A stretch of DNA of 64,000 nt, taken from the NCBI GenBank assembly GCA_947626945.1, contig CANQUC010000001.1, forward strand, positions 33,365-97,364, given 5' to 3'. Source of the DNA: an uncultured Lachnospiraceae bacterium (GTDB lineage Bacteria; Bacillota; Clostridia; Lachnospirales; Lachnospiraceae). Made by a program: the position numbers and the translations under genes. Below are positions 18,738 to 61,125 of this stretch, piece after piece (positions within the stretch are counted from its first letter, which is position 1; each line of letters begins with the position of its first letter). The notes under the pieces were generated by a model. It worked only from the letters and a program-made list of their open reading frames with translations, was not told where the DNA came from and ran no database searches.

Positions 18738-18918
18738 ATGTGGGAGTCCTTTCTAAACAACATCTTCAAACTACATTATATAGTTTTTAAAACCTTATGT
18801 AAAGTGTTTTTTTGAGCCGTTTTCATCTGGCCGGAGATTGACAGAAAAGGGGAATTCCATTATACTAAATGACAGTCGGAAAAAGACAGGCAATACAAGC
18901 AGAAAGGTAACCCGGTTT

Positions 18919-27190: not shown

Positions 27191-27326
27191 AATAATCCCT
27201 ATTCCGGAGCGTTTACGCGACGGGGCGACGCGAACCTCCAGTTCGCGTCTGCCATCAGTGCTATTTGTGACGCTCCGGCACAAATAGCCATGTGAAAAAT
27301 CAGCACATCGGTGTGATTTTTCACAC
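27191..27326 (-). repeat. Structured intergenic repeat, copy B (hairpin module + core), abutting the LysR start codon
   Basis: The reverse complement matches 16081-16235 almost base for base, minus the 19-nt extra hairpin of copy A. Perfect 12-bp inverted repeat tgtgaaaaatca/tgatttttcaca at 27291-27325. Confidence 0.9.
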
Positions 27327-29120: not shown

Positions 29121-29165
29121 GGCAGCTTCCCAAAAGTACAGGCTTTTGGGAGGGGCCTTTTTTTC
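29121..29165 (+). terminator. Rho-independent terminator
   Basis: cttcccaaaag (29126-29136) / cttttgggag (29143-29152) stem, then gggcc + T7. Confidence 0.7.
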
Positions 29166-29201: not shown

Positions 29202-29230
29202 TTGAATTTCTCTGTGGCACCATATATAAT
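29202..29230 (+). promoter_or_regulatory. Near-consensus sigma-A promoter of the mdh-hdr-flx-frd-fum-hyd operon
   Basis: TTGAAT (29202-29207), exactly 17-nt spacer, TATAAT (29225-29230), 45 nt upstream of the GTG start. Confidence 0.6.
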
Positions 29231-29274
29231 AGGAAACTGCAAGAGTATGCACTTAGATTGAAAGGAGCGGCAGT

Positions 29275-30222
29275 GTGAGCGCGAAAATAACCATTATCGG
29301 AGCAGGCAGCGTGGGATCCACCATCGCATTCAGCCTGTCCCAGAATAATATGGCGTCGGAGATTGTGCTGATTGACGTCAACAAAGAAAAAGTAGACGGC
29401 GAGGTGATGGATATTGAGCAGGGCACCTGCTTCAGGGACCCTGTATCCATTATCGCGGGAGATTATGAGGATGCCAGGAATTCGGATATTGTGATCATCA
29501 CATCCGGCATTGCCCGCAAGCCGGGTCAGACAAGAATCGAGCTGACCCAGACCAATGTAGATATTTTAAAGAGCATCACGCCGCTGATTGTAAAAGAGGC
29601 GCCGGACGCTCTGTACATAGTGGTCAGCAATCCGGTGGATATTATGACCTATGTGTTCACAAAGATTTCCGGATTGGGAGAAAATCAGGTCATCGGATCG
29701 GGAACCCTGTTGGATACCGCCCGGCTGCGCTGCGGGCTTTCCGAACGGCTGCAGATCGCCCAGCGGAACATCCATGCCTATGTATTTGGCGAGCATGGAG
29801 ACACCTCGTTCATTCCCTGGAGCGACGCCTACATTTCCGGCGTCAGCCTCAATGAATATATCCGGCAGAGGCGGGCCATGGGAATGAAGATAGAGGAGAT
29901 CGACAAGAAAGAGATGCTGGATTATGTGCGCAATTCCGGCGGAAAGATCATTGCCAACAAGGGCGCCACGTTTTACGCCATTGCCTCGGCTGTCTGCAAG
30001 CTGTGTTCAATCCTCCTGGCTTCCTCAGACTCCATGGCGGTGCTATCTTCCATGATGCACGGCGAGTACGGCATTGAGGACGTGTGCCTCAGCACGCTGA
30101 CCCTTGTGGGCCCCAACGGGATCCGCGGAAAGATTCAGATGCGCATGAACGAGGAGGAGATCGCGCAGCTGCGAAAAAGCGCGGATACCTTGAAAGCAGT
30201 CATCAGACAGATCCATCTTTAA
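29275..30222 (+). CDS. mdh: LDH-like NAD-dependent malate dehydrogenase (L-2-hydroxyacid dehydrogenase family)
   Basis: 'ITIIGAGSVGST' Rossmann motif, 'GEHGDT' catalytic His. The specificity loop reads 'SGIARKPGQTR', with Arg where LDHs have Gln102. Context includes fumarase and a fumarate-reductase-like pair. Confidence 0.65.
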   Translation: MSAKITIIGAGSVGSTIAFSLSQNNMASEIVLIDVNKEKVDGEVMDIEQGTCFRDPVSIIAGDYEDARNSDIVIITSGIARKPGQTRIELTQTNVDILKSITPLIVKEAPDALYIVVSNPVDIMTYVFTKISGLGENQVIGSGTLLDTARLRCGLSERLQIAQRNIHAYVFGEHGDTSFIPWSDAYISGVSLNEYIRQRRAMGMKIEEIDKKEMLDYVRNSGGKIIANKGATFYAIASAVCKLCSILLASSDSMAVLSSMMHGEYGIEDVCLSTLTLVGPNGIRGKIQMRMNEEEIAQLRKSADTLKAVIRQIHL

Positions 30223-30242
30223 GGGAGTGCAAAGGAGGAGCC

Positions 30243-31043
30243 ATGAAATACAGTTACTATCCGGGATGTACAGTAAAGAACCAGGCAAAGGAACTGGATC
30301 TCTATGCGAGAGCCTGCGGGGAAAAGCTGGGCTTTGAACTGGAGGAGCTCTCCCAATGGCAGTGCTGCGGGGGCGTATACCCCCTGGGCAGCGACGAGAT
30401 TGCCACCAAGCTGTCTTCTGTTCGCGCCCTTGCAGAGGCAAAGGAAAAGAAACAGGATCTGGTCACCCTTTGCTCCGCCTGCCATCATGTGCTGAAACGG
30501 GTTAATGACGATATGCGGTGTGTGGAAGACATTCGCGTCCGGGCAAACAATTATCTGCAGCCGGAGTCGCCCTATCAGGGAGAGACAACGGTGATCCATT
30601 ATCTGGAGGTGCTCCGGGATCGGGTGGGGTTTGACGTCCTGAAAGAAAAGGTCACCCATCCCCTTAACGGCAGAAAGATCGGCGCCTATTACGGCTGTCT
30701 GCTTTTGCGGCCCGGAAAGATCATGGGGTTTGACGATCCGGAGAATCCGGTGATCCTGGAGGATCTGATCCGCGCCCTGGGCGGAGAGCCGGTTGTCTAT
30801 CCTTACCGCAACGAGTGCTGCGGAGGATATCTTTCCCTGAAAGAAAAAGAGCTGTCCAAAAGTATGACGGACAGGATCATGGACAGCGCGGAGGGCTTTG
30901 GGGCTCAAATGCTGATCACCGCCTGTCCCCTGTGTCTGTATAACCTGAATCAGAGCACATCCGGCGCAAAGCTGCCGGTCCGTTATTTTACGGAGCTGCT
31001 GGCAGAGGCCCTTGGGGTAAAAGAGGAGGTGTCCGGAGAATGA
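30243..31043 (+). CDS. hdrB: Heterodisulfide reductase subunit B-like protein (two CCG domains)
   Basis: Start at ATG 30243 after AAAGGAGGAG. Two Cx(n)CCGx(m)CxxC units: 'YYPGC...WQCCGG...CSACHH' and 'YYGC...NECCGG...CPLCLY'. Confidence 0.85.
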   Translation: MKYSYYPGCTVKNQAKELDLYARACGEKLGFELEELSQWQCCGGVYPLGSDEIATKLSSVRALAEAKEKKQDLVTLCSACHHVLKRVNDDMRCVEDIRVRANNYLQPESPYQGETTVIHYLEVLRDRVGFDVLKEKVTHPLNGRKIGAYYGCLLLRPGKIMGFDDPENPVILEDLIRALGGEPVVYPYRNECCGGYLSLKEKELSKSMTDRIMDSAEGFGAQMLITACPLCLYNLNQSTSGAKLPVRYFTELLAEALGVKEEVSGE

Positions 31044-31429
31044 CAAAAGCGGAAAAACAGGCAGAACTGATCCGCCAGATCGGCGGAACCGATCCCTACA
31101 AATGTATGAAATGCGGCAAATGCTCCGCAACCTGTCCGTCTTTTGACCAGATGGACATCAAACCCCATCAGTTTGTCTCCTGTGTGCTTCATGACCAGAT
31201 CGGGAGACTGGTTCAGTCCAAGTCCCTGTGGAAATGCCTTTCCTGCTTTGCCTGTGTGGAACGGTGTCCCAGAGACGTAAAGCCGGGCAAGCTCATTGAC
31301 GCCGCAAGGCAGCTTGTGATCCGCCAGAGAGGGCAGGATTACCTGAATCCGGATCAGATTCCGGAGCTTTTGGATCCGGAACTGCCCCAGCAGCTGCTGG
31401 TCAGCGCGTTCCGCAGATACAGGAGGTAG
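31040..31429 (+). CDS. hdrC: Heterodisulfide reductase subunit C-like 4Fe-4S protein
   Basis: 'CMKCGKCSATCP' and 'CLSCFACVERCP'. Start overlaps the hdrB stop (ATGA). Confidence 0.8.
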   Translation: MTKAEKQAELIRQIGGTDPYKCMKCGKCSATCPSFDQMDIKPHQFVSCVLHDQIGRLVQSKSLWKCLSCFACVERCPRDVKPGKLIDAARQLVIRQRGQDYLNPDQIPELLDPELPQQLLVSAFRRYRR

Positions 31430-31434
31430 GAGCA

Positions 31435-33423
31435 ATGCAGAGAATCGGAGTATTTGTCTGCCATTGCGGAAGCAACATTGCCGCATCGGTGGATGTGAAA
31501 AAAGTGGCTGAGGCGGCTTTGCTGGAGCCGGGCGTAGTTCACGGGGAAGACTATCAGTATATGTGTTCCGAGACCGGACAGGCAAAGATCGTGGAGGCCA
31601 TTCGGGAAAAAAATCTGACGGGCATCGTTGTCTGTTCCTGTTCTCCCCGGATGCACGAGGCTACTTTCCGCAAATGCGCGGAGCGGGCAGGACTGAATCC
31701 CTATATGGTGGAGATCGCCAATATCCGGGAGCACTGTTCCTGGATTCACCGGGATATGCAGGAGGCCACCAAAAAAGCGGTGATCCTTATGAGAGCCGCC
31801 GTGGCCAAGGTAAATCTGAATACGCCTCTGAAAGCAGGAGAGAGCCGGGTGACAAAACGGGCGCTGGTCATTGGCGGCGGCATTGCCGGCATCCAGACGG
31901 CGCTGGACATTGCGGAGGCCGGGTATGAGGTAGATATCGTAGAGAAGTCTCCCAGCATCGGCGGCAGGATGGCACAGCTTGACAAGACCTTTCCCACACT
32001 GGACTGTTCGGCCTGCATTCTTACGCCAAAGATGGTGGAAGCTTCCGCCCATGAAAAGATTACTCTCTATACATACAGTGAAGTAGAACATGTGACAGGC
32101 TATGTGGGAGATTTTACGGTGGATATCCGCAAAAAAGCCCGCAGCGTCAATATGGAAAAATGTACCGGCTGCGGCCTCTGTCAGGAGAAATGTCCCTCCA
32201 GAAAGACGCCCAGCGAGTTTAACAGAGGACTGAGTACAAGAAGCGCCATTTACACGCCCTTTGCCCAGGCCATTCCAAATGTGCCGGTGATCGACCGGGA
32301 GCACTGCATAAAGTTTCAGACGGGAAAATGCGGGCTGTGCGCCAAGGTGTGCCAGGCAGACGCCATAGACTATCAGCAGCAGGATCAGATCATTACGGAG
32401 AAATACGGCGCCATTGTGGTGGCTACCGGATTTGATACCATCAGTCTGGATCAGTACGGCGAATATGCTTACAGCCAGAGCCCCGATGTGATCACTTCCC
32501 TGGAGCTGGAGCGGATCATGAACGCGGCGGGGCCTACCGGAGGCCATCTGGAGCGGCTGTCGGATCACAGGCAGCCAAAAAATATGGTGTTTGTCCAGTG
32601 CGTGGGCAGCCGGTGCGCCGACAGCAGGGGAAAGAGTTACTGCTCCAAGATCTGCTGCATGTACACGGCAAAGCATGCCATGCTGATCCGGGACAAATAT
32701 CCGGATGTAAACGTAACGGTGTTCTACATTGATGTGCGGACGCCGGGCAAAAATTTTGATGAGTTTTACCGCAGAGCGGTGGAAGAATACCATGTGAATT
32801 ATATCAAAGGCCAGGTTGGCAAGGTGGCTCCCCAGCCGGACGGCAGCCTGCTGGTGCAGGGCGTCGATCTGCTGGATAACAGGCAGGTTTTGATCAATGC
32901 GGATATGGTGGTGCTGGCCACCGCCATTGAACCTGGTCCGGACGCCCGCAGGATCGCCGCCATGCTTACCGCAAGCATTGATACAAACAATTTCCTGACG
33001 GAAGCCCATCCAAAGCTGCGCCCTGTGGAATCGCCCACGGCAGGCATTTTCCTTTCCGGCGTTTGCCAGGGCCCCAAGGATATTCCGGAAACGGTATCTC
33101 AGGCAGGGGCCGCGGCGGTAAAGGTCATCGGACTGCTGGCCAAGGATAAGCTTCTGACCAATCCCTGTACGGCAAAGGCCGACGAACTGATGTGCAACGG
33201 CTGTTCCGCATGCGCAAACGTATGCCCTTATGGGGCGATCTCCTATGAGGATCACGAGGTCAGGGGGCCGGGCGTTCGGGAAGTACGCCGTGTGGCAGTG
33301 GTGAACGACGCTCTCTGTCAGGGCTGCGGCGCCTGTACGGTGGCATGTCCCTCCGGCGCCATGGACCTGCAGGGATTTTCAAACAGACAGATCATTGCGG
33401 AGGTAGATGCCATATGCAGGTAG
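31435..33423 (+). CDS. hdrA: Heterodisulfide reductase subunit A-like FAD/FeS flavoprotein
   Basis: N-terminal MvhD-like Cys domain 'VFVCHCGSNI...VVCSCSPR...REHCSW'. 'VIGGGIAGIQTALDIAEAG' FAD fold. Inserted and C-terminal ferredoxin motifs 'CTGCGLCQEKCP', 'CGLCAKVC', 'CNGCSACANVCP', 'CQGCGACTVACP'. Confidence 0.9.
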   Translation: MQRIGVFVCHCGSNIAASVDVKKVAEAALLEPGVVHGEDYQYMCSETGQAKIVEAIREKNLTGIVVCSCSPRMHEATFRKCAERAGLNPYMVEIANIREHCSWIHRDMQEATKKAVILMRAAVAKVNLNTPLKAGESRVTKRALVIGGGIAGIQTALDIAEAGYEVDIVEKSPSIGGRMAQLDKTFPTLDCSACILTPKMVEASAHEKITLYTYSEVEHVTGYVGDFTVDIRKKARSVNMEKCTGCGLCQEKCPSRKTPSEFNRGLSTRSAIYTPFAQAIPNVPVIDREHCIKFQTGKCGLCAKVCQADAIDYQQQDQIITEKYGAIVVATGFDTISLDQYGEYAYSQSPDVITSLELERIMNAAGPTGGHLERLSDHRQPKNMVFVQCVGSRCADSRGKSYCSKICCMYTAKHAMLIRDKYPDVNVTVFYIDVRTPGKNFDEFYRRAVEEYHVNYIKGQVGKVAPQPDGSLLVQGVDLLDNRQVLINADMVVLATAIEPGPDARRIAAMLTASIDTNNFLTEAHPKLRPVESPTAGIFLSGVCQGPKDIPETVSQAGAAAVKVIGLLAKDKLLTNPCTAKADELMCNGCSACANVCPYGAISYEDHEVRGPGVREVRRVAVVNDALCQGCGACTVACPSGAMDLQGFSNRQIIAEVDAICR

Positions 33424-33857
33424 AAGACAAGAAAGAATTCCGGCCAAAGATCGTCGCCTTTTGCTGCAACTGGTGCAGCTACGCCGGGGCGGATCTTGCG
33501 GGAAGCAGCCGTCTTTCCTATCCGGCGGATGTGAAGATCATCCGTGTCCCCTGTTCCTGCAGGGTAAATCCCATGTTCATTCTGCGGGCCTTTGAGCGGG
33601 GCGCGGACGGGGTGATCCTCTGCGGATGCCATCCGGGAGACTGTCATTACAGCACCGGCAATTTTTACACAAGAAGACGTATGACGCTGCTGTTCTCCAT
33701 GCTGGATTTTATCGGAATCGAAAAGGGGCGTGTGAGAGTGGAGTGGGTTTCCGCCGCGGAGGGGGCCAAATTCTCCGCCACCATGAATGAATTCGCGGAA
33801 AAGATCCGTTCCCTTGGGGAAAACGTCAGATTGGGGGATATCAGATGCAGGAGCTGA
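33414..33857 (+). CDS. mvhD: MvhD/FlxD-like [2Fe-2S] hydrogenase delta-subunit-type protein
   Basis: 'KIVAFCCNWCSYAGADLAG...IRVPCSCRVNP...ILCGCHPGDCHY' is the MvhD signature. ATG 33414 overlaps the hdrA 3' end. Confidence 0.85.
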   Translation: MQVEDKKEFRPKIVAFCCNWCSYAGADLAGSSRLSYPADVKIIRVPCSCRVNPMFILRAFERGADGVILCGCHPGDCHYSTGNFYTRRRMTLLFSMLDFIGIEKGRVRVEWVSAAEGAKFSATMNEFAEKIRSLGENVRLGDIRCRS

Positions 33858-34816
33858 TCAAAAGAGCAAAAGAACTGCTGGCAGACGGCACGGCAGCCCG
33901 TGTGCTGGGCTGGCGCCGGGGCGATCTGCCCTACAATCCCGAGCCGGCGTTTTTTGAAAAAGAGGAAGACCTGGACCGGTTTGTTTACGACGGGTTCTGC
34001 GGCGCCAATTTAAGCAAGATGATGATCGAGGCTTCCCGGCTGGAGGGAAAGACTCTGGTCTTTTTGAAGCCCTGCGATACATACAGCTTCAACCAGCTTT
34101 TGAAAGAGCATCGGGTAGACCGGGAGAAAGCCTATATCATAGGCGTGGGATGCCGTGGCAAGCTGGATATTGAAAAGATCCGTGCCCAGGGCATCAGCGG
34201 CATCACAGCCATATCCGGCGCGGAAAATGACGGCCCGGATACCCTGAAGGTCAGGACCATTTACGGGGACAGAACCGTAAACTACGGATCCGCTCTGCTT
34301 GGGCGCTGTCATGTGTGCAAGGGCAAGGAGCACAAAATCTGTGACGAACAGATCGGCCGGTCCCGGGACACAAAGGACGCCGATCCCTATGAGGAAGTGC
34401 GCGCCGTGGAGGCTATGACGCCGGAAGCGCGGTTTGCCTTTTTTCAGAAAGAACTTGGAAAATGTATCCGCTGCAACGCGTGCCGCAACGTGTGTCCCGC
34501 GTGCAGCTGCCGGAAATGTGTCTTTGACAGTACCAGCTTTGACAGCGCCCAGAAAGCAAATGTGGACTCCTTTGAAGAAAAAATGTTCCACATCATCCGT
34601 TCCTTTCATGTGGCCGGGCGCTGCACAGACTGCGGCGAGTGCAGCAGAGTGTGTCCCCAGGGGATTCCGCTCCATCTGTTCAACCGCAGGTATATAAAAG
34701 AGATCAATGAACTGTACGGACAGTTTCAGGCCGGTGAGGATCCGGAAGCGACCAGTCCCCTTACGGATTATCTGGCTGAGGATCCGGAGCCGGGCATCAT
34801 AGAAGAAAGGGGATAA
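33845..34816 (+). CDS. FlxC-like / sulfhydrogenase-beta-like 4Fe-4S protein
   Basis: 'CIRCNACRNVCPACSC' and 'CTDCGECSRVCP', the same motif layout as the next gene. Start overlaps the mvhD stop. Confidence 0.6.
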   Translation: MQELIKRAKELLADGTAARVLGWRRGDLPYNPEPAFFEKEEDLDRFVYDGFCGANLSKMMIEASRLEGKTLVFLKPCDTYSFNQLLKEHRVDREKAYIIGVGCRGKLDIEKIRAQGISGITAISGAENDGPDTLKVRTIYGDRTVNYGSALLGRCHVCKGKEHKICDEQIGRSRDTKDADPYEEVRAVEAMTPEARFAFFQKELGKCIRCNACRNVCPACSCRKCVFDSTSFDSAQKANVDSFEEKMFHIIRSFHVAGRCTDCGECSRVCPQGIPLHLFNRRYIKEINELYGQFQAGEDPEATSPLTDYLAEDPEPGIIEERG

Positions 34817-34820
34817 TGTC

Positions 34821-35864
34821 ATGTATAAGATAACAAAAGAGAATCTGCGGGCATTATTCCGTGAGATTGCCGGCAGCCGGGAGCTTTATCTGCCGGTGGA
34901 GATGGGCGGTCAGGTGAACTTCGGCGTATGGGATGAGGACGCGAAGGTGCGCCTGGATGTGTTAAAGACCGTAAAGTCTCCAAAGGACATTTTTTTCCCT
35001 CAGGCCGAAACATTATATACCTGCACGGGGTCAGGAAAAAACATCCGGATCAAGCCTCAGGAGCTGAAAGACCGGGATTTTGTGGTGTTTGGAATGCGCG
35101 CCTGCGACGTGCGGGGAGTTAAGGTGCTGGATCAGGTATTTTTAAGCGATCCCCAGGACACCTATTACGCTGCCCGCCGGGCCCATGGGATTCTGGTGTC
35201 CATGGCCTGCGGCCGGCCGGAAGAATCCTGTTTCTGCAGTACCTTTGGCATAGACGCGGCCGCTCCCGAGGGAGACGTGGCCGCATGGATGACAGAGAAG
35301 GATCTTTTCCTGAAGCCTCTTACCGAAAAAGGAGAACAGTTCATAACCTCTGTGGAGTCGCTTTTGACAAAGGCGGAGGATGAAGCGGAGACTGTGGAAG
35401 CGGAGCAGAAGCGGATCCGGGAGATTCTGGAAAAACTGCCCTACAGGAATCTTTCCTTAGACGGCTGGGACGGCGGAGCCACAGAAGAAAAATTTGATTC
35501 TCCCATCTGGGAGACGCTGTATCGTCCCTGTCTGGCATGCGGCACCTGCACGTTTGTGTGCCCTACCTGCCAGTGTTACGATATTAAGGATTACCGGACG
35601 GCGGAGGGCGTTCAGCGTTACCGCTGCTGGGATTCCTGCATGTATTCGGATTTTACGCTGATGGCCGGGGGCAACAACAGGACGACCCAGCTGCAGCGGT
35701 TTCGCCAGAGATTTATGCACAAACTGATTTACTTCCCCGCCAACAATCAGGGAATGTATTCCTGCGTAGGCTGCGGGCGGTGCGTGGAAAAATGCCCGTC
35801 GTCCCTGAATATCGTGAAAGTGATCAAAGCATTTGAAAAACAGGGAGGTGGCGCGAATGTGTAA
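34821..35864 (+). CDS. FlxB-like / AsrA (anaerobic sulfite reductase A) / sulfhydrogenase-beta-like 4Fe-4S protein
   Basis: 'CLACGTCTFVCPTCQC' and 'CVGCGRCVEKCP', with the N-terminal AsrA-like region. Confidence 0.65.
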   Translation: MYKITKENLRALFREIAGSRELYLPVEMGGQVNFGVWDEDAKVRLDVLKTVKSPKDIFFPQAETLYTCTGSGKNIRIKPQELKDRDFVVFGMRACDVRGVKVLDQVFLSDPQDTYYAARRAHGILVSMACGRPEESCFCSTFGIDAAAPEGDVAAWMTEKDLFLKPLTEKGEQFITSVESLLTKAEDEAETVEAEQKRIREILEKLPYRNLSLDGWDGGATEEKFDSPIWETLYRPCLACGTCTFVCPTCQCYDIKDYRTAEGVQRYRCWDSCMYSDFTLMAGGNNRTTQLQRFRQRFMHKLIYFPANNQGMYSCVGCGRCVEKCPSSLNIVKVIKAFEKQGGGANV

Positions 35865-36690
35865 CCGCAGGGATCCCCTGATCCCCCAGATCGGCGTGAT
35901 CACCCATGTGGAGACCGAGACGCCTGACGTAAAAACCTTTCGGATCGTCAGGCCGGAGGGGGGTAAGTTATTTGACCATATGCCCGGCCAGTGCGCCATG
36001 ATCTGCGTGCCGGGGGTCAGCGAGGGAATGTTTTCCATTACCTCTTCCCCAACCAATCGGGAATATCAGGAGTTCAGCATCAAACGGTGCGGAATGCTCA
36101 CGGAGCAGCTTCACAGCCTGGAACCGGGAGACCAGGTGACTGTCCGGGGCCCTTACGGGAATCATTTTCCCGTGGAAACTGAGCTGAAAGGAAAAGACCT
36201 GCTGTTTATCGCAGGCGGGATCGGACTGGCCCCCCTGCGCTCGGTGATCAATTATGTGCTGGACAACCGGCAGGATTACGGCAAGATAGACATTCTTTAC
36301 GGAGCCCGATCCGCAGACGATCTGGTGCGGCGAAAAGAAATGGAAGAGGTGTGGATGAAAGCTCCCGGCGTAAACGGATATCTGACCATAGATGTGGCTC
36401 AGGAGGGCTGGAACGGCCATGTGGGCTTTGTGCCGGACTACCTGAAAGAAATCGGCTTTGCCGCTGACAAGACTGCCCTGGTATGCGGGCCTCCCATTAT
36501 GATCAAATTTGTGCTTGCCGCCCTGGAGGGAATGGGCTACACAAAGGAACAGGTATATACGACCCTGGAGCTTCGGATGAAATGCGGAATCGGCAAATGC
36601 GGGCGCTGCAACATCGGCTCCAAGTATGTGTGCAAGGACGGCCCCGTTTTCCGGCTGGATCAGATCGAAGAGCTGCCGGACGAGTATTAG
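35857..36690 (+). CDS. FlxA-like / AsrB / sulfhydrogenase-gamma-like FAD-NAD(P)H oxidoreductase with C-terminal [2Fe-2S]
   Basis: 'FSITSSP' (RxYS-like FAD motif region), 'LFIAGGIGLAPL' NAD(P) fold, 'CGIGKCGRCNIG...CKDGPVF' cluster motif. ATG 35857 lies 8 nt after AGGGAGG and overlaps the upstream stop. Confidence 0.75.
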   Translation: MCNRRDPLIPQIGVITHVETETPDVKTFRIVRPEGGKLFDHMPGQCAMICVPGVSEGMFSITSSPTNREYQEFSIKRCGMLTEQLHSLEPGDQVTVRGPYGNHFPVETELKGKDLLFIAGGIGLAPLRSVINYVLDNRQDYGKIDILYGARSADDLVRRKEMEEVWMKAPGVNGYLTIDVAQEGWNGHVGFVPDYLKEIGFAADKTALVCGPPIMIKFVLAALEGMGYTKEQVYTTLELRMKCGIGKCGRCNIGSKYVCKDGPVFRLDQIEELPDEY

Positions 36691-36742
36691 GGCATTGATT
36701 TCCTGCAAAGGGGTACAATACGGAAAGGAATGGTATGGATCA

Positions 36743-37417
36743 ATGGAAGAAATGGTAAACGTATATTTTTTCGGTAAGAAATACAGTGTGCCTGCATCCC
36801 TCACCATCATGACGGCTATGGAATACGCAGGATATACCTTAAAGCGGGGCTGCGGCTGCCGCCACGGCTTTTGCGGCGCCTGCGCCACCATATACCGGAT
36901 TAAGGGAAAGAATGAGCTGAAGACCTGTCTGGCCTGTCAGACCCAGGTGGAGGAAAGCATGTATGTGGCCAGTATTCCTTTCTTTCCCACGGACAAGCGC
37001 ACATATGAGATCGAGGATATCCGGCCAGACCAGCGGGTTATGATGGAACTGTATCCGGAGATCTACAGCTGTATCGGGTGTAATGCCTGTACGAAAGCCT
37101 GCACCCAGGATCTGAATGTGATGCAGTATATTGCCTACGCCCAGCGGGGTGAATTTGAAAAATGCGCGGAGGAATCTTTTGACTGTGTGGGCTGCGGGTG
37201 CTGTTCCGTTCGCTGTCCCGCGGGCATTTCCCATCCCATGGTAGGCCTGCTGGCAAGAAGGCTTACCGGCAAATACATAGCGCCTCAGGCGGAGCACCTG
37301 AACAGGCGGGTGGAAGAGATCCATTCAGGTCAGTATGACCGGCTGATTGAGCAGATTATGGAAAAGCCCATTGAGGAAATGCAGGAACTGTACAATCACA
37401 GAGAGATTGAAAAGTAA
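36743..37417 (+). CDS. SdhB/FrdB-like iron-sulfur subunit (2Fe-2S-like N-domain + 2x Cys clusters)
   Basis: 'CGCRHGFCGACAT', 'CIGCNACTKAC', 'CVGCGCCSVRCP'. Sits immediately upstream of the flavoprotein. Confidence 0.65.
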   Translation: MEEMVNVYFFGKKYSVPASLTIMTAMEYAGYTLKRGCGCRHGFCGACATIYRIKGKNELKTCLACQTQVEESMYVASIPFFPTDKRTYEIEDIRPDQRVMMELYPEIYSCIGCNACTKACTQDLNVMQYIAYAQRGEFEKCAEESFDCVGCGCCSVRCPAGISHPMVGLLARRLTGKYIAPQAEHLNRRVEEIHSGQYDRLIEQIMEKPIEEMQELYNHREIEK

Positions 37418-37429
37418 GGAGGGAACATC

Positions 37430-39031
37430 ATGTTTACAACGGAAATGCTGGAATCCGTCAAAAAGGTGGAAGCCACCAGGGCAGCGCGTATGGGCACCGA
37501 GCCTGAGCGTATGTCGGCAGAGGAAAAGGATGCTCTCCTGAAACAATATCATCCGGATTACCGGGAGGAAGGCTTTGACCGGATTCAGGTGGGTCCCAAC
37601 GCGGGACAAAAGGCCCCCAGGGAGCTGACGGCGCTTCTTCATTCCAACAGCCGCCTGCTTCACCGGAATCTGGATCTGACCAAAATAGATTATGACGTGG
37701 ATGTGCTGGTGATCGGCGGCGGCGGCGCGGGAGCTTCCGCGGCCATCGAGGCGAAAGCGGCCGGCGCGGATGTGATGATCGTCACCAAACTCCGCATTGG
37801 AGACGCCAACACCATGATGGCGGAAGGTGGCATCCAGGCGGCAGACAAGGAAAATGATTCTCCGGTGCAGCATTATCTGGACGCGTTTGGAGGCGGACAT
37901 TTTGCCGCCAGGCCGGAGCTTTTAAGAAGACTGGTCATGGAGGCGCCCGACGCCATTCAGTGGCTGAACGGGCTGGGCGTCATGTTTGACAAAGATGAAA
38001 GCGGCCGTATGGTCACCACCCACGGCGGCGGCACATCCAGAAAGCGGATGCACGCCTGCAAGGATTATACCGGGGCGGAGATCATGCGGACTTTGCGGGA
38101 CGAGGTGCTGAACCGGAAGATTCCCGTGGCGGAATTTACCTCCGCCGTTGAACTGCTGAAAGATGAGAAAGGGCAGGTAGCCGGTGCGGTTCTTCTGAAC
38201 ATGGAGACAGACGACTATCTGGTGGCAAGGGCAAAGACGGTGATCATTGCCACAGGCGGCGCGGGACGGCTTCATTATCAGAATTTCCCCACCTCCAATC
38301 ATTACGGCGCGACCGCGGACGGCCTTGTGCTGGGATATCGGGCGGGCGTGCCCCTGCTGTATCAGGACACCATCCAGTACCATCCTACGGGAGTGGCCTA
38401 TCCCTCCCAGATCTTTGGCGCGCTGGTAACGGAGAAAGTCCGTTCGCTGGGCGCCATGCTGGTGAACAGGGAAGGGGAAGCGTTTATGCACCCTCTTGAG
38501 ACAAGAGATGTTGCCGCGGCCGCCATTATCCGGGAATGTACCCAAAGAGGCATGGGCGTCACAACGCCTCTTGGCAGCGGGGTATGGCTGGACACGCCCA
38601 TGATCGAACTGATGGGCGGAGAGGGCACCATTGAAAAACGCATTCCGGCAATGCTGCGGATGTATCTGAATTATGACATTGATATGCGCAGACAGCCGAT
38701 CCTGGTATATCCCACCCTGCATTATCAGAACGGCGGGCTGGAGATCGGCGGAGACGGGTTTACGAAGACTGTTCCGAACCTGCTTGTGGCCGGGGAGGCA
38801 GTAGGCGGCATTCACGGAAGAAACCGGCTGATGGGCAACTCGCTTCTGGATATTATCGTGTTTGGGCGCAACGCGGGCAAGATGGCGGCGGCCCGGGCAA
38901 AGGAAACCGTACTGGGCAGGCCCGGCCTGGATCATATTACAGAGTATGCCAGACAGCTGCAGGCGGCCGGAGTGGAGACAGAGGGGGTATCTCCTCTGCT
39001 GCTGCCGGATTACGCAAGACATGAGAGATAA
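37430..39031 (+). CDS. Fumarate reductase/succinate dehydrogenase/L-aspartate oxidase-family FAD flavoprotein (soluble type)
   Basis: 'VDVLVIGGGGAGASAAIEA', 'TMMAEGGIQA', 'IIATGG', 'QYHPTG', 'GEAVGGIHGRNRLMGNSLLD'. ~85-aa N-terminal extension. No TM or signal sequence. Confidence 0.75.
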   Translation: MFTTEMLESVKKVEATRAARMGTEPERMSAEEKDALLKQYHPDYREEGFDRIQVGPNAGQKAPRELTALLHSNSRLLHRNLDLTKIDYDVDVLVIGGGGAGASAAIEAKAAGADVMIVTKLRIGDANTMMAEGGIQAADKENDSPVQHYLDAFGGGHFAARPELLRRLVMEAPDAIQWLNGLGVMFDKDESGRMVTTHGGGTSRKRMHACKDYTGAEIMRTLRDEVLNRKIPVAEFTSAVELLKDEKGQVAGAVLLNMETDDYLVARAKTVIIATGGAGRLHYQNFPTSNHYGATADGLVLGYRAGVPLLYQDTIQYHPTGVAYPSQIFGALVTEKVRSLGAMLVNREGEAFMHPLETRDVAAAAIIRECTQRGMGVTTPLGSGVWLDTPMIELMGGEGTIEKRIPAMLRMYLNYDIDMRRQPILVYPTLHYQNGGLEIGGDGFTKTVPNLLVAGEAVGGIHGRNRLMGNSLLDIIVFGRNAGKMAAARAKETVLGRPGLDHITEYARQLQAAGVETEGVSPLLLPDYARHER

Positions 39032-39054
39032 CCCATAATGGCAAGGAGAACAAA

Positions 39055-40215
39055 ATGAATATATTGAAATGGTTTCAGGAAAATATCATGTCAAATACCA
39101 TGATGCTGGTGTTTTTGATTGCCGTGATCGGCTATCTGGTAGGCAGCATCCGGATTCGGGGCATCGAACTTGGCACGGCGGGAATTCTGCTGGTGGCTCT
39201 GGTGTTTGGCCATTTTGGCTTTGAGATCCCCGATCTTGTGCGGGAAATGGGACTGATCTGCTTTGTCACATCCGTAGGCTTCATTGCGGGCCCCAATTTC
39301 TTCCGGAATTTTAAACAGAACGCCACTTCCTATATTTTGCTTGGAGTGATCATCATTGTCTCCGGCGCCCTGGTGTGCGTTGGAATCATCAAGCTTTTTG
39401 GGATCCCCACCGACATCAGCGTGGGCATGATGGCGGGAGCTTTGACAAGCACTCCCGGACTGGCGGCGGCTTTAGAGTCTACCGGTTCCAATGCGGCGTC
39501 TGTGGGCTATGGGATCGCCTATCCCTTTGGGGTAGTGGGGGTGGTTCTGTTTGTGCAGCTGATCCCCAAGATCCTGAAGACGGACATGGCCGCGGAGCGG
39601 GCGCAGTTTCAGGCAGCGGCATCGCAGACAGAGGACTACCGCAAGAAACAGAAGCAAAAGCTGTTTTACGCGGACAGCATGGGATTTTTCCCTTTTTCCC
39701 TGGCAATTGTGCTGGGAATTATCCTGGCAAAAATTGAGATCCGTCTTCCGGGAGGGGGCGTGTTCTCTCTTGGAACTTCCGGCGGCCCGCTGATCGCGGG
39801 TCTGATCCTGGGCCATTTCGGCCATATCGGAAAAATGAGCGTCAAAGTGGAAAAAAGCGTGCTTCAGTGCCTGCGGGAATTTGGACTGGCCCTGTTTCTT
39901 CTTGGGGCAGGCGCCCAGGCGGGGGCAGGCTTTGTGGACATTTTAAAGGAGCATGGCGTGCTGCTGTTTGTTTACGGAGCGCTGATGACCCTGGTTCCCA
40001 TGCTTCTGGGATATCTGTTTGCCGCAAAGGTGCTGAAGCTCAGCGTATTTAACAGTCTGGGCTCTATCTGCGGCGGAATGACCAGCACGCCGGCTTTAGG
40101 CACCCTGATCCGGGTAACGGAAACCGACGATGTGGCCTCCGCCTACGCGGCCACCTATCCGGTGGCTCTGGTGCTGGTAGTGCTGGCCTGTCAGTTTATC
40201 GGCGTGTTCCTGTAG
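39055..40215 (+). CDS. AAE-family (aspartate:alanine exchanger / YidE-YbjL / SucE-like) transporter lacking the central TrkA-C domains
   Basis: Two internal repeats: 'GYLVGSIRIRGIELGTAGILLVALVFGH...GLICFVTSVGFIAGP' and 'GGVFSLGTSGGPLIAGLILGH...GLALFLLGAGAQAG'. About 10 TM helices. Confidence 0.7.
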   Translation: MNILKWFQENIMSNTMMLVFLIAVIGYLVGSIRIRGIELGTAGILLVALVFGHFGFEIPDLVREMGLICFVTSVGFIAGPNFFRNFKQNATSYILLGVIIIVSGALVCVGIIKLFGIPTDISVGMMAGALTSTPGLAAALESTGSNAASVGYGIAYPFGVVGVVLFVQLIPKILKTDMAAERAQFQAAASQTEDYRKKQKQKLFYADSMGFFPFSLAIVLGIILAKIEIRLPGGGVFSLGTSGGPLIAGLILGHFGHIGKMSVKVEKSVLQCLREFGLALFLLGAGAQAGAGFVDILKEHGVLLFVYGALMTLVPMLLGYLFAAKVLKLSVFNSLGSICGGMTSTPALGTLIRVTETDDVASAYAATYPVALVLVVLACQFIGVFL

Positions 40216-40262
40216 CCAAAGGGCCGGCAGGATCAAGTGTGGAACAGGAAAGGAGAATCATC

Positions 40263-41105
40263 ATGCGCGAGATCAGCGGAGGACAGATTACAGATGCGGT
40301 AGAGCGCCTTTGTATCCAGGCAAATCAGTTTCTGCCGGAAGACGTGCGAAAGGCCGTCAGAAACTGCCGTGACTGTGAGGACTGGGAAACCGCCAGGGGA
40401 GTACTGGACAAGATCATTGATAATTTTGAGATCGCGGAGAAAGAGCAGGTTCCCATCTGCCAGGACACAGGCATGGCATGTGTGTTTCTGGAGATCGGAC
40501 AGGATGTGCATATTACCGGGGGAGACCTGACGGAGGCGGTAAACGAGGGCGTCCGCCGGGGCTATGAAAAAGGCTATCTCCGCAAATCCGTAGTAAAGGA
40601 TCCGGTGCGCCGGGGAAATACCGGCGACAACACTCCGGCCATGATCTACACGGAGATTGTTCCCGGGGAGCAGATCCGGATCACGGTGGCCCCAAAGGGG
40701 TTTGGCAGCGAAAATATGAGCGCCATTCGGATGTTTAAGCCCTCCGCGGGACTGGAGGGGATCAAGGATTTCATTTTGGAGACGGTGGAAAACGCGGGCC
40801 CCAATCCGTGCCCTCCTATGGTAGTGGGCGTTGGGATCGGCGGAACCTTTGACAAGGCGGCGCTTCTGGCCAAAAAAGCCCTGATCCGTCCCATTGACTC
40901 GGAAAACCCGGATCCCTTTTACGCAGACCTGGAAAAAGAAATGCTGGAAAAGATCAACCGCCTTGGTATTGGCCCCCAGGGCTTTGGAGGAAAGACCACG
41001 GCCATCGGCCTCAACATTGAGACCATGCCTACCCACATTGCGGGAATGCCATGTGCCATCAACATCAGCTGTCATGTGACCAGACATCAGACGGAGGTGA
41101 TCTAG
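40263..41105 (+). CDS. Class I (Fe-S) fumarate hydratase alpha subunit / L(+)-tartrate dehydratase alpha-type
   Basis: 'PICQDTGMACVFLEIGQDV', 'GDNTPAMI', 'PKGFGSENMS', 'CPPMVVGVGIGGT', 'INISCHVTRH'. ATG 40263 lies 6 nt after GGAAAGGAGA. Confidence 0.85.
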   Translation: MREISGGQITDAVERLCIQANQFLPEDVRKAVRNCRDCEDWETARGVLDKIIDNFEIAEKEQVPICQDTGMACVFLEIGQDVHITGGDLTEAVNEGVRRGYEKGYLRKSVVKDPVRRGNTGDNTPAMIYTEIVPGEQIRITVAPKGFGSENMSAIRMFKPSAGLEGIKDFILETVENAGPNPCPPMVVGVGIGGTFDKAALLAKKALIRPIDSENPDPFYADLEKEMLEKINRLGIGPQGFGGKTTAIGLNIETMPTHIAGMPCAINISCHVTRHQTEVI

Positions 41106-41669
41106 TTGGAAAAACATATTACGCTGCCTCTTACGGAGGAACTGGCCAGATCCCTTCACTGCGGGGAGACGGTGTATCTGACCGGTACCGTTTATACATC
41201 CAGAGACGCCGGACACAAGAGAATGTGCGAGACGCTTGCCAGGGGAGAAGCCCTTCCCTTTGACCCGTCCGACGCTACGATATATTATGTGGGCCCTACT
41301 CCCGCGAAGCCGGGGCAGGTCATTGGATCTGCAGGCCCTACAACCAGCGGCCGGATGGACGCCTACGCGCCTGCAATGATGAAGGCAGGCGCCCGGGGAA
41401 TGATCGGAAAAGGCGCGCGTCTGCCGGAAGTGGTGGACGCCATGAAAAAATACGCCGGCGTTTATTTTGGAGCCATTGGCGGCGCAGGGGCCCTTTTGGC
41501 AAAATGTATCAAAAAAAGCGAACTGATCGCGTACGAAGATCTGGGGGCGGAGGCGCTCAGAAAGCTGTATGTGGAAGAGTTTCCCGTGGTGGTGATCATT
41601 GACAGCCGGGGGAACAACCTGTACGAAAACGGCAGGGCGGCATATCTGGCCGCGAAGAAAACAGACTGA
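41106..41669 (+). CDS. Class I fumarate hydratase beta subunit
   Basis: TTG start abutting the alpha-subunit stop. 'LTGTVYTSRDAGHKRM', 'IYYVGPTPAKPG', 'GPTTSGRMD', 'MIGKG'. Confidence 0.85.
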   Translation: MEKHITLPLTEELARSLHCGETVYLTGTVYTSRDAGHKRMCETLARGEALPFDPSDATIYYVGPTPAKPGQVIGSAGPTTSGRMDAYAPAMMKAGARGMIGKGARLPEVVDAMKKYAGVYFGAIGGAGALLAKCIKKSELIAYEDLGAEALRKLYVEEFPVVVIIDSRGNNLYENGRAAYLAAKKTD

Positions 41670-41704
41670 CGAACAAAAACGGGGACGATTGGGAGGATAA
41701 CGGG

Positions 41705-43162
41705 ATGAAATCAAATGAGACTGCCGTCAACGGCATCAGACATCAGGTATTGCGGGAGGTTGCCAGGCTTGCCTGGGCAGGCGAGCTGGAGGAAAAACGG
41801 GACCAGATCCCCTACTGGATCATTCCGGGGCCTCAGGCCAAGTTCCGGTGCTGTATTTACAAAGAAAGGGAGATCATCCGCCAGCGGGTTCGTCTGGCCG
41901 AGGGAAAATGTCCCACGGACAAGCAGTCCTCCAATGTGATCCAGGTGATCAACGCAGCCTGCGAGGAATGTCCCATCGCATCCTATCTGGTAACGGACAA
42001 CTGCCGGAAATGTATTGGAAAGGCCTGTCAGAGCGCCTGTCAGTTTGATGCCATCTCCATGGGTGACCATCGGGCCTATATCGATCCCGTAAAATGCAGA
42101 GAGTGCGGCAAATGCGCCCAGGCATGTCCCTACAGCGCCATTGCCCATTTGGAACGGCCATGCAAGAAAGCGTGTCCCGTAGATGCCATTGCCTATGATG
42201 AGTATGGAATCTGCGTGATCGATGAAAAAAAGTGCATTGCATGCGGAAATTGTTTCCACAACTGTCCCTTTGGCGCCATTGCGCCCAAAATCTCTCTTGT
42301 GGATGTGATCAAGGAGATCCGGGCTGGAAAACGGGTGGTGGCTATGGTGGCCCCCTCTACGGAGGGCCAGTTTGGCCCCGGCATTACCATGGCCAGCTGG
42401 AAGACCGCCTTGAAAAAGGTGGGGTTTGCGGATATGGTGGAAGTAGGACTGGGAGGAGATATGACCGCGGCGGCAGAAGCCGAGGAGTGGGCGCAGGCCT
42501 ATCAGGAAGGCCGGAAAATGACCACCTCCTGTTGTCCGGCGTTTGTCAATATGATCCGGATGCACTTCCCCAAGCTGATGAAATACATGTCTGACACCGT
42601 ATCGCCTATGTGCGCCGTGTCCCGGTTCTTAAAACAGCAGGATCCGGAAACCGTCACGGTGTTTATCGGTCCCTGTGTGGCCAAGAAGAGCGAGGCGCAG
42701 GATCACGGGATCCAGGGCAACGCGGATTATGTGATGACCTACGGCGAAGTCCGGTCTATGATGTATGCGAAAAACGTGGAGCTGGAGCCGGAGGATCCGG
42801 TTTATCAGGAAAGCTCCGTTTACGGAAAGCGCTTTGGCAACAGCGGCGGGGTAGCTTCCGCGGTGCTGCGGTGTTTTGAGGAAATGGGTGAGGAGAAAGC
42901 TCCCAATGTGCTTCGGTGCAACGGAGCCGCGGAGTGCAAAAAAGCGCTGTTTTTGCTGCGCGCGGGACGCCTCAAGGAGGACTTTATTGAGGGAATGGCC
43001 TGTGTGGGCGGCTGCGTAGGCGGCCCCAGCAAAAATATGAGTGAGGCGGAGGCGAAAAAAACCAGAGACGAGATGATCGGCCAGGCAGACAGCCGGGGCG
43101 TTCATGAGAATCTGAAGCTTGTGGGGGCAGATCAGGTGCCGATGCACCGGACCACATCCTGA
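41705..43162 (+). CDS. [FeFe]-hydrogenase catalytic subunit with N-terminal multi-[4Fe-4S] domain
   Basis: H-cluster motifs L1 'TSCCPAF', L2 'GPCVAKKSE', L3 'EGMACVGGCVGGP'. Ferredoxin motifs 'CRECGKCAQACP' and 'CIACGNCFHNCP', plus further Cys clusters. Confidence 0.85.
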   Translation: MKSNETAVNGIRHQVLREVARLAWAGELEEKRDQIPYWIIPGPQAKFRCCIYKEREIIRQRVRLAEGKCPTDKQSSNVIQVINAACEECPIASYLVTDNCRKCIGKACQSACQFDAISMGDHRAYIDPVKCRECGKCAQACPYSAIAHLERPCKKACPVDAIAYDEYGICVIDEKKCIACGNCFHNCPFGAIAPKISLVDVIKEIRAGKRVVAMVAPSTEGQFGPGITMASWKTALKKVGFADMVEVGLGGDMTAAAEAEEWAQAYQEGRKMTTSCCPAFVNMIRMHFPKLMKYMSDTVSPMCAVSRFLKQQDPETVTVFIGPCVAKKSEAQDHGIQGNADYVMTYGEVRSMMYAKNVELEPEDPVYQESSVYGKRFGNSGGVASAVLRCFEEMGEEKAPNVLRCNGAAECKKALFLLRAGRLKEDFIEGMACVGGCVGGPSKNMSEAEAKKTRDEMIGQADSRGVHENLKLVGADQVPMHRTTS

Positions 43163-43232
43163 CAGGTGAGACGGAAAGACAGAACCGACAAAGGCCTGTG
43201 GTCTTTGTTCAATGAAATATTTTAGCGGATTT

Positions 43233-48178: not shown

Positions 48179-48261
48179 GTACAGAATGAATTTTTTGCAT
48201 GGTCCCATGGAGGGTGTTACCCGGGGGTTTGCCCAATCCATCCGGACAGATAGGGGGCTCT

Positions 48262-49074: not shown

Positions 49075-49089
49075 CGGAGGTCTTAGATC

Positions 49090-49470: not shown

Positions 49471-49489
49471 GAAAGGCAGGTGGAATGTT

Positions 49490-51689: not shown

Positions 51690-51693
51690 TCAT

Positions 51694-54010
<2,317 letters not shown>

Positions 54011-61118: not shown

Positions 61119-61125
61119 GAATCTC

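Follow-up and report, generated by a model that had tools for sequence, protein, structure and literature searches.

A fourteen-gene operon of an uncultured Lachnospiraceae bacterium joins Flx-Hdr and soluble fumarate reductase genes: a candidate ferredoxin-coupled route to succinate

We examined a 64,000-nucleotide stretch of DNA (hereafter the window; assembly GCA_947626945.1, contig CANQUC010000001.1, positions 33,365 to 97,364 of the forward strand) from an uncultured Lachnospiraceae bacterium, in which an earlier note, written from the bare sequence, had pointed to an operon that links Flx-Hdr electron-transfer genes to a soluble fumarate reductase. As Table 1 shows, fourteen consecutive open reading frames (ORFs) on the plus strand span 29275-43162, and the Pfam and NCBIfam domain content agrees with the gene list of that note. 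A hydropathy scan finds transmembrane-type segments in none of the redox subunits, as had been claimed, and many in the AAE protein, which is the sole protein of the operon to have them. The same scan reveals no membrane anchor subunit encoded with frdAB in the operon.

Table 1. Features of the operon region, with positions in the window and the number of informative loci in which each gene is linked to frdA
Feature	Positions	Strand	Basis or remark	Linked/informative loci
Terminator-like hairpin	29126-29153	+	12-bp stem and T run; ends upstream flavin-reductase-like gene (28536-29105)	
Sigma-70-type promoter-like site, TTGAAT-17-TATAAT	29202-29230	+	10/12 matches; 45 nt 5' of first start codon	
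mdh (gene 1), LDH-family NAD-dependent dehydrogenase, read as malate dehydrogenase	29275-30222	+	Pfam Ldh_1_N/C; Arg at position-102 site	35/49 (~70%)
hdrB, HdrB-like, two CCG domains (non-cubane [4Fe-4S] sites)	30243-31043	+	Pfam CCG x2	53/53
hdrC, HdrC-like 2x[4Fe-4S] subunit	31040-31429	+	Pfam, NCBIfam	53/53
hdrA, full-length HdrA, FAD and several iron-sulfur clusters	31435-33423	+	NCBIfam HdrA2, 799 bits	53/53
mvhD, MvhD/FlxD-type [2Fe-2S] adaptor	33414-33857	+	Pfam FlpD, 185.9 bits	60/60
flxC, iron-sulfur protein with 2x[4Fe-4S] motif, FlxC-like by position	33845-34816	+	Generic Fer4 matches only (Pfam, NCBIfam)	62/62
flxB, AsrA/sulfhydrogenase-beta-like iron-sulfur protein (FlxB-like)	34821-35864	+	Pfam Fer4_22; NCBIfam ShyB/HydB/AsrA	66/66
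flxA, AsrB/sulfhydrogenase-gamma-like FAD-NAD(P)H-[2Fe-2S] protein (FlxA-like)	35857-36690	+	Pfam FAD_binding_6, NAD_binding_1, DHODB_Fe-S_bind; NCBIfam	67/67
frdB, [2Fe-2S] and two complete CxxCxxCxxxC motifs	36743-37417	+	Distantly SdhB-like (E ~1e-6); resembles N-terminal part of TfrB	73/73
frdA, soluble fumarate-reductase-type flavoprotein	37430-39031	+	Pfam FAD_binding_2; best NCBIfam model TfrA	
Short AAE-family transporter, 386 aa, two Asp-Al_Ex domains	39055-40215	+	Pfam PF06826 x2, 266.8 bits; TIGR01625	35/55
fumA, class I fumarate hydratase alpha	40263-41105	+	Pfam, NCBIfam; ORF opens at GTG 40239, better Shine-Dalgarno at ATG 40263	58/63 (~92%)
fumB, class I fumarate hydratase beta	41106-41669	+	Pfam, NCBIfam	56/61
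Monomeric group B [FeFe]-hydrogenase (HydM type)	41705-43162	+	TIGR04105, 591.4 bits, cut-off 450	0/51
10-bp hairpin, possible bidirectional terminator (weak)	43187-43209		Between convergent hydrogenase and ATP-binding-cassette exporter genes	

The arrangement of these elements makes it likely that the fourteen genes form one transcript. The hairpin that ends the upstream gene, graded strong and terminator-like, is the predicted 5' boundary of the operon, and the promoter-like site reported in the earlier note is indeed present directly after it. Because promoter-like matches in the operon region are not enriched over shuffled sequence (13 against 10.0 ± 3.2), the argument for this promoter is its position and not its score. 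The thirteen junctions measure, in gene order, 20, -4, 5, -10, -13, 4, -8, 52, 12, 23, 23 (47 with the ATG at 40263), 0 and 35 nucleotides (nt); the widest gap is thus 52 nt, as had been stated, but the five overlaps claimed are four overlaps and one abutting pair. A Shine-Dalgarno-like sequence precedes nearly all fourteen starts, and a terminator scan of the cluster turned up no convincing plus-strand terminator within 29275-43162, in keeping with the single transcript that had been proposed. The hairpin beyond the last gene does not exceed shuffled sequence in stability and, on the plus strand, lacks a clean T run. As to regulation, a LysR-family gene on the minus strand (26315-27283) lies ~2 kb upstream of the operon, separated from it by an alpha/beta-hydrolase gene and the flavin-reductase-like gene, and in a Blautia-like contig (L081) a LysR gene (L081:367-1275) is directly divergent from mdh; the LysR-family protein is a candidate regulator of the operon. 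An Rfam scan of the window gave no match in or near the operon, the sole match being a ribosomal protein L10 leader (RF00557, 9501-9633, plus strand, 66.6 bits) upstream of the L10 gene.

Conservation of the gene linkage was assessed by a scan for FrdA relatives with one genome per species, in which 600 pattern-matching stretches were examined and at least 591 were confirmed. Linkage was then counted by tblastn with all 14 window proteins against the best 80 of these at least 591 FrdA loci; a locus was informative if it had enough flanking DNA, and a gene was counted if it lay on the same strand and in order. The best 80 relatives are 76-89% identical to the window FrdA and come from Lachnospiraceae, Oscillospiraceae, Acutalibacteraceae, Faecousia, Lawsonibacter, Blautia schinkii, Fusicatenibacter, Dorea, Mediterraneibacter and others. 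The linkage of the redox genes is strict (Table 1), and because the order hdrBCA-mvhD-flxCBA-frdBA is kept in every informative locus (53/53 to 73/73) and in several Clostridia families, we treat these nine genes as a unit. The fumarase, malate dehydrogenase (MDH) and transporter genes are frequent companions of the unit, and the hydrogenase gene is a local addition in the window genome. The co-occurrence of hdr and flx genes with frdBA and fumarase across Clostridia families, which the earlier note had proposed to look for, is therefore real among these best 80 loci. Independent gene calls and Pfam confirm the layout in L081 and also in L083 (GCA_947630735.1), the closest relative among the matches listed, whose FrdA is 90% identical; there the operon stops after fumAB, with no hydrogenase, and is followed by a tRNA-synthetase-family gene (Pfam tRNA-synt_1f). 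Identity across families is 76-89% for FrdA, 79-89% for HdrA and 80-90% for MvhD, and only 59-73% for FlxB. The high similarity between Lachnospiraceae and Oscillospiraceae/Acutalibacteraceae proteins suggests that the cluster is under very strong constraint or has spread horizontally as a whole.

The first seven genes of the unit supply all seven component types of the FlxABCD-HdrABC family in a contiguous run, including a full-length HdrA, a two-CCG HdrB and a 2x[4Fe-4S] HdrC. HdrB aligns to the solved HdrB of 8rvv/5odc (E 2e-32) with all 10 Cys of both CCG motifs kept, which confirms the two complete motifs seen before; among NCBIfam models, SdhE (top, 144 bits, cut-off 500) and HdrB score about equally, both below cut-off. 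HdrA residues 3-660 align to the bifurcating HdrA 5odc_A (E 2.9e-203), which makes it a candidate bifurcating flavoprotein. The MvhD protein is the FlxD-type adaptor, and its gene lies where Flx-Hdr systems have it, with hdrA on one side and the flx genes on the other. Of the two proteins earlier called AsrA/FlxBC-like, the second is clearly AsrA/HydB-like (E 6e-47 to P. furiosus sulfhydrogenase I beta, PDB 9nez_B), but the first matches generic 2x[4Fe-4S] models only; it shows weak similarity to its FlxB-like neighbour over the cluster motifs, and a weak FrhB_FdhB_C match is recorded for its orthologue in L083. The FlxA-like protein, with its flavin adenine dinucleotide (FAD) and nicotinamide-nucleotide domains, is the predicted entry point for NAD(P)H (reduced nicotinamide adenine dinucleotide or its phosphate). 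In the methanogen MvhAGD-HdrABC and Fdh-Hdr complexes (5odc, 7bkb, 8rvu), HdrA, HdrB, HdrC and MvhD are close full-length homologues of those in the window, with the cluster ligands kept, and by analogy the bifurcating core should be the same. The methanogen complexes take electrons from [NiFe] hydrogenase or formate dehydrogenase and deliver them to the heterodisulfide, whereas the donor in the window would be NAD(P)H through Flx and the proposed acceptor fumarate through FrdBA.

The SdhB-like gene had been given a start at 36626. The gene itself is present, but its start is most likely at 36743, chosen because the protein then has 224 aa, like its orthologue in L083. Neither Pfam nor NCBIfam detects a CCG domain in FrdB. 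FrdA matches the TfrA model at 329.8 bits (cut-off 718) over model positions 6-425 of 546, leaving ~120 C-terminal residues of the model unmatched, and all NCBIfam fumarate-reductase and NadB models are below cut-off for it. Unlike SdhA/FrdA/TfrA, the protein has no C-terminal helical domain; it carries an 88-aa N-terminal extension that is itself highly conserved. By alignment, the equivalents of E. coli SdhA H242, R286, H354 and R399 are found in QYHPTG, ETRD, PTLHY and HGRNRL, and Asn takes the place of the covalent-FAD His (E. coli SdhA H45) in DANTMMAEGG. The four catalytic positions and this Asn are invariant in 80/80 FrdA orthologues, which upholds the assignment to the Frd/Sdh-type flavoproteins with fumarate-reductase residues. 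We consider it very unlikely that FrdA acts on another substrate, such as L-aspartate, urocanate or another enoate, and that the fumarase linkage is incidental. The scores below cut-off, the absence of a C-terminal domain that SdhA, FrdA and NadB all have and an NCBI product name that reads merely 'FAD-dependent oxidoreductase' would fit such a substrate; the invariant His/Arg/His/Arg set, a dedicated SdhB-like partner in every locus, the frequency of linked fumarase and MDH genes (Table 1) and the fumarate reductase activity and succinate production of related organisms argue for fumarate.

The Asn at the FAD site also bears on the direction of catalysis. E. coli Frd without the covalent FAD link loses succinate oxidation and keeps fumarate reduction, and in the superfamily non-covalent FAD goes with fumarate reduction, as judged from E. 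coli FrdA His44 variants and soluble flavocytochrome c3. The presence of Asn in 80/80 orthologues therefore favours the reductive direction. Operation in reverse, in which succinate oxidation and reduced ferredoxin together would yield NADH (confurcation) for succinate utilisation, draws on the fact that flavin-based bifurcating enzymes are reversible in principle and that succinate is abundant in the gut. Enzymes of this family with non-covalent FAD are, however, generally poor succinate oxidisers, the relatives with physiological data (Blautia luti and Pseudoclostridium thermosuccinogenes) excrete succinate, and the linked MDH and fumarase suit the reductive branch, so that we regard reverse operation as highly improbable.

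The first gene had been named mdh, and NCBIfam would instead name it an L-lactate dehydrogenase (L-LDH): two L-LDH models score above cut-off (349.8, cut-off 339; 332.1, cut-off 303.55) and two MDH models below (274.8, cut-off 283; 216.5, cut-off 351.85). L-LDHs have Gln at position 102 (classical numbering), and Wilks and colleagues reportedly found in 1988 that the residue at this position switches specificity to oxaloacetate. In gene 1 the motif GIARKPGQTR places Arg there, as in 36/36 cluster-linked orthologues and in the best PDB match (1y6j, C. thermocellum); the next match, the genuine LDH 4m1q, has Gln. On the strength of Arg102 and the malate/fumarate gene context, the product is probably an LDH-derived MDH that would reduce oxaloacetate, and we set the L-LDH name aside. 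The earlier name thus keeps its malate determinant, though not the support of the MDH cut-offs.

The two Asp-Al_Ex (YidE-YbjL duplication) domains bear out the assignment of the transporter to the AAE family. It aligns to AspT structures with E 2e-22, and Pfam detects no domain between its two Asp-Al_Ex domains; the solved AspT proteins are 543-549 aa long. The protein is a candidate C4-dicarboxylate (succinate) exporter or antiporter. Among the linked loci, the gene occurs as two subtypes (~46% and ~80% identity) and is found either in the frdA-fumA interval or 3' of fumB. In L081 a DUF1275 membrane protein (L081:13205-13984) occupies the position 3' of fumB that the AAE gene has elsewhere, and it may be an alternative exporter.

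The last gene of the operon passes its family model, and the H-cluster motifs TSCCP, PCxxKxxE and MACxGGCxxG are intact when aligned to CpI. Group B [FeFe]-hydrogenases of gut bacteria are reported to be ferredoxin-dependent and H2-producing (Welsh et al. 2025, PMC12578642), and a ferredoxin-reoxidising role would fit the window enzyme; its placement in an frd operon is particular to the window genome. The hydrogenase is a lineage-specific passenger of the operon, outside the conserved system, and by analogy with its class it more likely reoxidises reduced ferredoxin and vents H2. The earlier note had allowed for H2 as a donor, with the hydrogenase feeding Hdr via MvhD as in MvhAGD-HdrABC so that H2 oxidation would drive bifurcation to fumarate and ferredoxin. 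The hydrogenase gene does begin 35 nt 3' of fumB with no terminator between them, and an MvhD homologue is in the operon. However, the hydrogenase is linked in none of the 51 informative loci and is missing from the closest relative among the matches listed (L083), it is a monomeric group B [FeFe] enzyme of the ferredoxin-coupled, H2-producing kind (PMC12578642) and not an MvhAG-type [NiFe] enzyme, and mvhD has the Flx-Hdr position and type. We find H2 as the donor scarcely credible and rejected it on the linkage count and the hydrogenase class. Separately, the B. luti locus tags place frdA and frdB (RS08525 and RS08530) four tags from hydM (RS08550), which is followed by hydCBA (RS08555-65; GKZ57; PMC12773636 supplement); a hydrogenase may thus lie near the frd genes in B. 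luti, in a spacing that, from the tags alone, is unlike the nine-gene layout elsewhere.

More distant FrdA relatives were sought among 1.84 billion cluster representatives. FrdA with the N-terminal extension forms a compact clade with few other full-length clusters (44-56% identity), and the alignments of ordinary SdhA/NadB-type proteins to it begin only at residue ~88 and show 35-41% identity. A 56% relative (L085:3761-9771) lies in a locus where a four-gene 2-oxoacid:ferredoxin oxidoreductase is followed by hdrA-mvhD-hdrC-hdrB-frdB-frdA. Because this locus has no flx genes, the association of Hdr with Frd does not require Flx; hdrB there directly adjoins frdB. A 47% relative (L086/L087) has the layout frdB-frdA-NuoF-like (L086:9366-12891), and its contig has cytochrome c and UbiA genes as well; another locus (L088:5250-7433) encodes a 727-aa FrdB-FrdA fusion, and the other distant members are stand-alone pairs. 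FrdBA looks like a module fed by interchangeable electron donors.

The module found beside a NuoF-like gene is consistent with a second explanation of the operon, namely a soluble NAD(P)H:fumarate reductase that does not bifurcate, in which Flx and Hdr are a mere wire and no ferredoxin is reduced. Miura and colleagues are said to have described, in 2008, a soluble five-subunit NADH-dependent fumarate reductase of Hydrogenobacter thermophilus, which counts in the same direction. The metabolic model of B. luti likewise assumes an NADH-dependent enzyme (PMC12773636). A mere wire would, however, make it hard to explain a full-length HdrA with both ferredoxin-type domains that is conserved at 79-89% identity across families, and it would waste ~68 kJ per fumarate, which is unusual for fermenters without quinone-linked fumarate respiration. 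We consider this explanation distinctly unlikely.

How HdrB might connect to FrdB is suggested by the NCBIfam TfrB model, of which FrdB matches positions 19-87 and HdrB positions 415-487 of 488. In methanogen TfrB both parts are in one polypeptide, and SdhE, the top model for HdrB, is the CCG subunit that accompanies the SdhAB-type pair in methylmenaquinol:fumarate reductase. Because the two window proteins match the two halves of TfrB, and HdrB resembles SdhE, we have a Rosetta-stone argument for an HdrB-FrdB partnership. The same likeness could be read as two enzymes that share a thiol/disulfide carrier: Flx-HdrABC would reduce ferredoxin and a disulfide, and the thiol would then reduce fumarate, as in TfrAB. 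FrdB has no CCG domain, so FrdBA lacks the known thiol-oxidising site, and both reduction and re-oxidation of the carrier would fall to HdrB, the only CCG protein of the operon. No DsrC-type carrier or thiol-biosynthesis gene is linked in the inspected loci (L081, L083), and synthesis of coenzymes M and B (CoM/CoB) is not known in Clostridia. The carrier is nevertheless unlikely rather than negligible, since TfrA is the best model for FrdA, FrdB and HdrB match the TfrB halves, and the characterised HdrB proteins all reduce a disulfide. In addition, the study of P. thermosuccinogenes discussed below has Flx-Hdr passing electrons to 'ferredoxin (and thiols)' (PMC7282089).

Considering these results together, we hold with good confidence that the cluster encodes the branch of a succinate fermentation that reduces fumarate, and that its electrons come in through Flx-Hdr. 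The stronger claim, that the operon encodes a cytoplasmic NADH:fumarate and ferredoxin bifurcating reductase, working as one complex and driving succinate fermentation, we judge to be on balance probable. Cytoplasmic reduction of fumarate and ferredoxin driven by NADH is a reasonable reading because of the conserved nine-gene unit, its companions, the FrdA residues and the full-length HdrA. Oxaloacetate would be reduced to malate by the LDH-family MDH, malate converted to fumarate by the class I fumarase, and fumarate reduced to succinate by a soluble, quinone-independent complex of the nine gene products, with succinate leaving, or being exchanged, through the AAE protein. NAD(P)H would be oxidised at FlxA (FAD, [2Fe-2S]), and the FlxB/FlxC iron-sulfur proteins and then MvhD/FlxD would relay the electrons to HdrA, at whose FAD the pair would be split. 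The downhill electron would travel by way of HdrC, the HdrB CCG clusters, FrdB and the non-covalent FAD of FrdA to fumarate; the uphill electron would reach ferredoxin by way of the HdrA ferredoxin-like domains. The predicted net reaction is 2 NADH + fumarate + Fd(ox) -> 2 NAD+ + succinate + Fd(red), which by our own calculation (NAD -320 mV, fumarate +33 mV, ferredoxin ~ -450 mV) yields ~ -43 kJ per reaction. In the window genome the probably co-transcribed group B hydrogenase would reoxidise the ferredoxin to give H2, and because this hydrogenase class is reported to do so, the operon overall would carry out 2 NADH + fumarate -> succinate + H2. Other genomes may use the ferredoxin through Rnf or other consumers. 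Some 3.4 kb downstream, on the minus strand, lies a beta-class carbonic anhydrase gene (46558-47166); since CO2/bicarbonate is needed when succinate is made via phosphoenolpyruvate carboxylation, the proximity to the operon may be functional, or it may be coincidental.

Fumarate as the high-potential acceptor, with NADH entering through Flx, had been proposed in the earlier note; as a deduction from linkage and residues this is sound, and bifurcation keeps a conditional place within it. From the DNA we infer four things, which are the formation of a complex, direct transfer from HdrB to FrdB with no thiol between, NADH as the donor, and bifurcation; the gene content, cofactor motifs, catalytic residues, missing membrane anchor and strict linkage are observed. 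Several points weigh against the bifurcating complex. A single complex and a pair of enzymes with a common carrier would look alike in gene linkage. To our knowledge, HdrB is a disulfide reductase in every characterised Hdr, and a purely relaying role would have no precedent for Hdr. Because distant members of the clade occur without Hdr, as stand-alone pairs, as a fusion or with a NuoF-like gene, FrdBA appears able to use other donors. The AlphaFold2 model of FrdA is poor (mean pLDDT 57, pTM 0.60, large stretches below 50) because the underlying alignment, of 31 sequences at 85-90% identity, is too shallow. Full-text literature searches to 2026 found neither the complex nor bifurcation demonstrated biochemically or structurally in any organism, in agreement with the earlier statement that no complex of such composition has been characterised biochemically. 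Finally, the B. luti study modelled its fumarate reductase as simply NADH-dependent (PMC12773636).

The hypothesis itself is already in print. P. thermosuccinogenes has a 'succinate operon' (CDQ83_RS03315-03365), transcribed and responsive to CO2, which brings together a fumarate hydratase, the seven Flx-Hdr components, a fumarate-reductase gene pair and a presumed succinate transporter, and Koendjbiharie et al. 2020 published the proposal that fumarate reduction is coupled to ferredoxin reduction through Flx-Hdr (PMC7282089). That paper cites for it a 2019 preprint by Koendjbiharie and van Kranenburg (10.20944/preprints201912.0288.v1). The composition of that operon, with orthology judged from the paper's description, is that of the window, but as described it has no mdh and no hydrogenase, both present in the window, and has fumarase first and a transporter annotated as hypothetical; the window host, unlike P. 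thermosuccinogenes, is a mesophilic gut-type Clostridium relative, Lachnospiraceae-like by best matches. Independently, Rubin-Blum et al. 2019 described tubeworm symbionts and Thioflavicoccus mobilis in which tfrAB/korABCD are intermixed with flxABCD-hdrABC, and proposed an electron-bifurcating complex that passes electrons from NADH to fumarate and ferredoxin (PMC6315080). Those clusters share with the window a soluble two-subunit fumarate reductase among Flx-Hdr genes, and the oxidoreductase-hdr-frdBA layout of L085 is similar to them; they belong, however, to Gammaproteobacteria that fix CO2 autotrophically by the reductive tricarboxylic acid cycle and include a 2-oxoglutarate:ferredoxin oxidoreductase, whereas the window cluster is fermentative, with MDH, fumarase and exporter. 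A 2026 survey still words the idea as "it has been suggested" and adds co-expression data only (PMC13147460). The novelty implied by the earlier note therefore lapses: the window operon is a further case of the proposed kind, and what is missing is the enzymology.

Other characterised systems resemble the operon in part. Desulfovibrio vulgaris FlxABCD-HdrABC, reported by Ramos et al. 2015, likewise has all seven component types contiguous and a DsrC disulfide as proposed acceptor; the window differs in its hdrBCA-flxDCBA order, in having the frd pair in the operon and in having no DsrC-type gene there. Methanothermobacter TfrAB (Heim et al. 1998) is soluble and combines CCG, SdhB-like iron-sulfur and fumarate-reducing flavoprotein parts, as the window does, but the halves of its single-chain TfrB are separate proteins here (FrdB and HdrB), FrdA has the extra 88-aa N-terminus and falls below the TfrA cut-off, and its thiols, CoM and CoB, are not expected in Clostridia. 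Type E succinate:quinone reductase (SQR), or methylmenaquinol:fumarate reductase, also pairs a CCG protein (SdhE) with an SdhAB-type pair; it is membrane-associated, quinone-linked and has covalent FAD, whereas the window shows no quinone-linked features and has Asn for the covalent His. With neither an anchor subunit nor the covalent-FAD His, the window enzyme also stands apart from the membrane-bound quinol:fumarate reductases and SQRs. Blautia luti is a succinate producer with high methyl-viologen:fumarate reductase activity, NADH-MDH activity and highly transcribed frdAB, and the 2026 study that reports this treats FrdAB as NADH-dependent and does not mention Hdr (PMC12773636).

Elsewhere in the window, genes for the a, alpha, gamma and beta subunits of ATP synthase form an operon (48199-54010, plus strand) ~5 kb downstream of the frd operon, and its alpha-like ORF (49932-51689, 585 aa as an ORF) is long for an F-type alpha subunit. 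A PcrA/UvrD-type helicase (18838-21282, plus strand) has a weak collagen-repeat match at residues 686-735 (26.4 bits, cut-off 27.2), between the helicase core and a C-terminal tudor domain, which is probably a low-complexity Gly-rich linker. Four plus-strand ORFs have no Pfam match at E <=1e-6 (10871-12706, 12831-13673, 13715-14623 and 60907-62709; 611, 280, 302 and 600 aa).

Among gut Clostridia this cluster is both common and strictly conserved. The hypothesis is directly testable, and the system would offer a first test of whether HdrB can serve a non-disulfide acceptor. If the enzyme bifurcates, succinate-forming gut Clostridia without quinone-linked fumarate respiration would gain reduced ferredoxin with each fumarate, which could be spent on ATP through Rnf or on H2 through a hydrogenase, and models of gut succinate and H2 metabolism would need different energy and redox balances. 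Taking every element jointly, that is, a nine-subunit cytoplasmic complex, bifurcation with fumarate as acceptor, HdrB CCG clusters as a pure relay, a main succinate route in quinone-free gut Clostridia and, here, H2 pulled along, gives a picture that we hold only tentatively, as a serious possibility a little more apt to fail than to hold. Were it true, this would be the first Hdr-type enzyme with a non-disulfide terminal acceptor, fumarate reduction would pull H2 evolution from NADH in the window genome, and Blautia, Dorea, Fusicatenibacter, Faecousia and uncultured Lachnospiraceae and Oscillospiraceae would share an overlooked main route of succinate formation and energy conservation.

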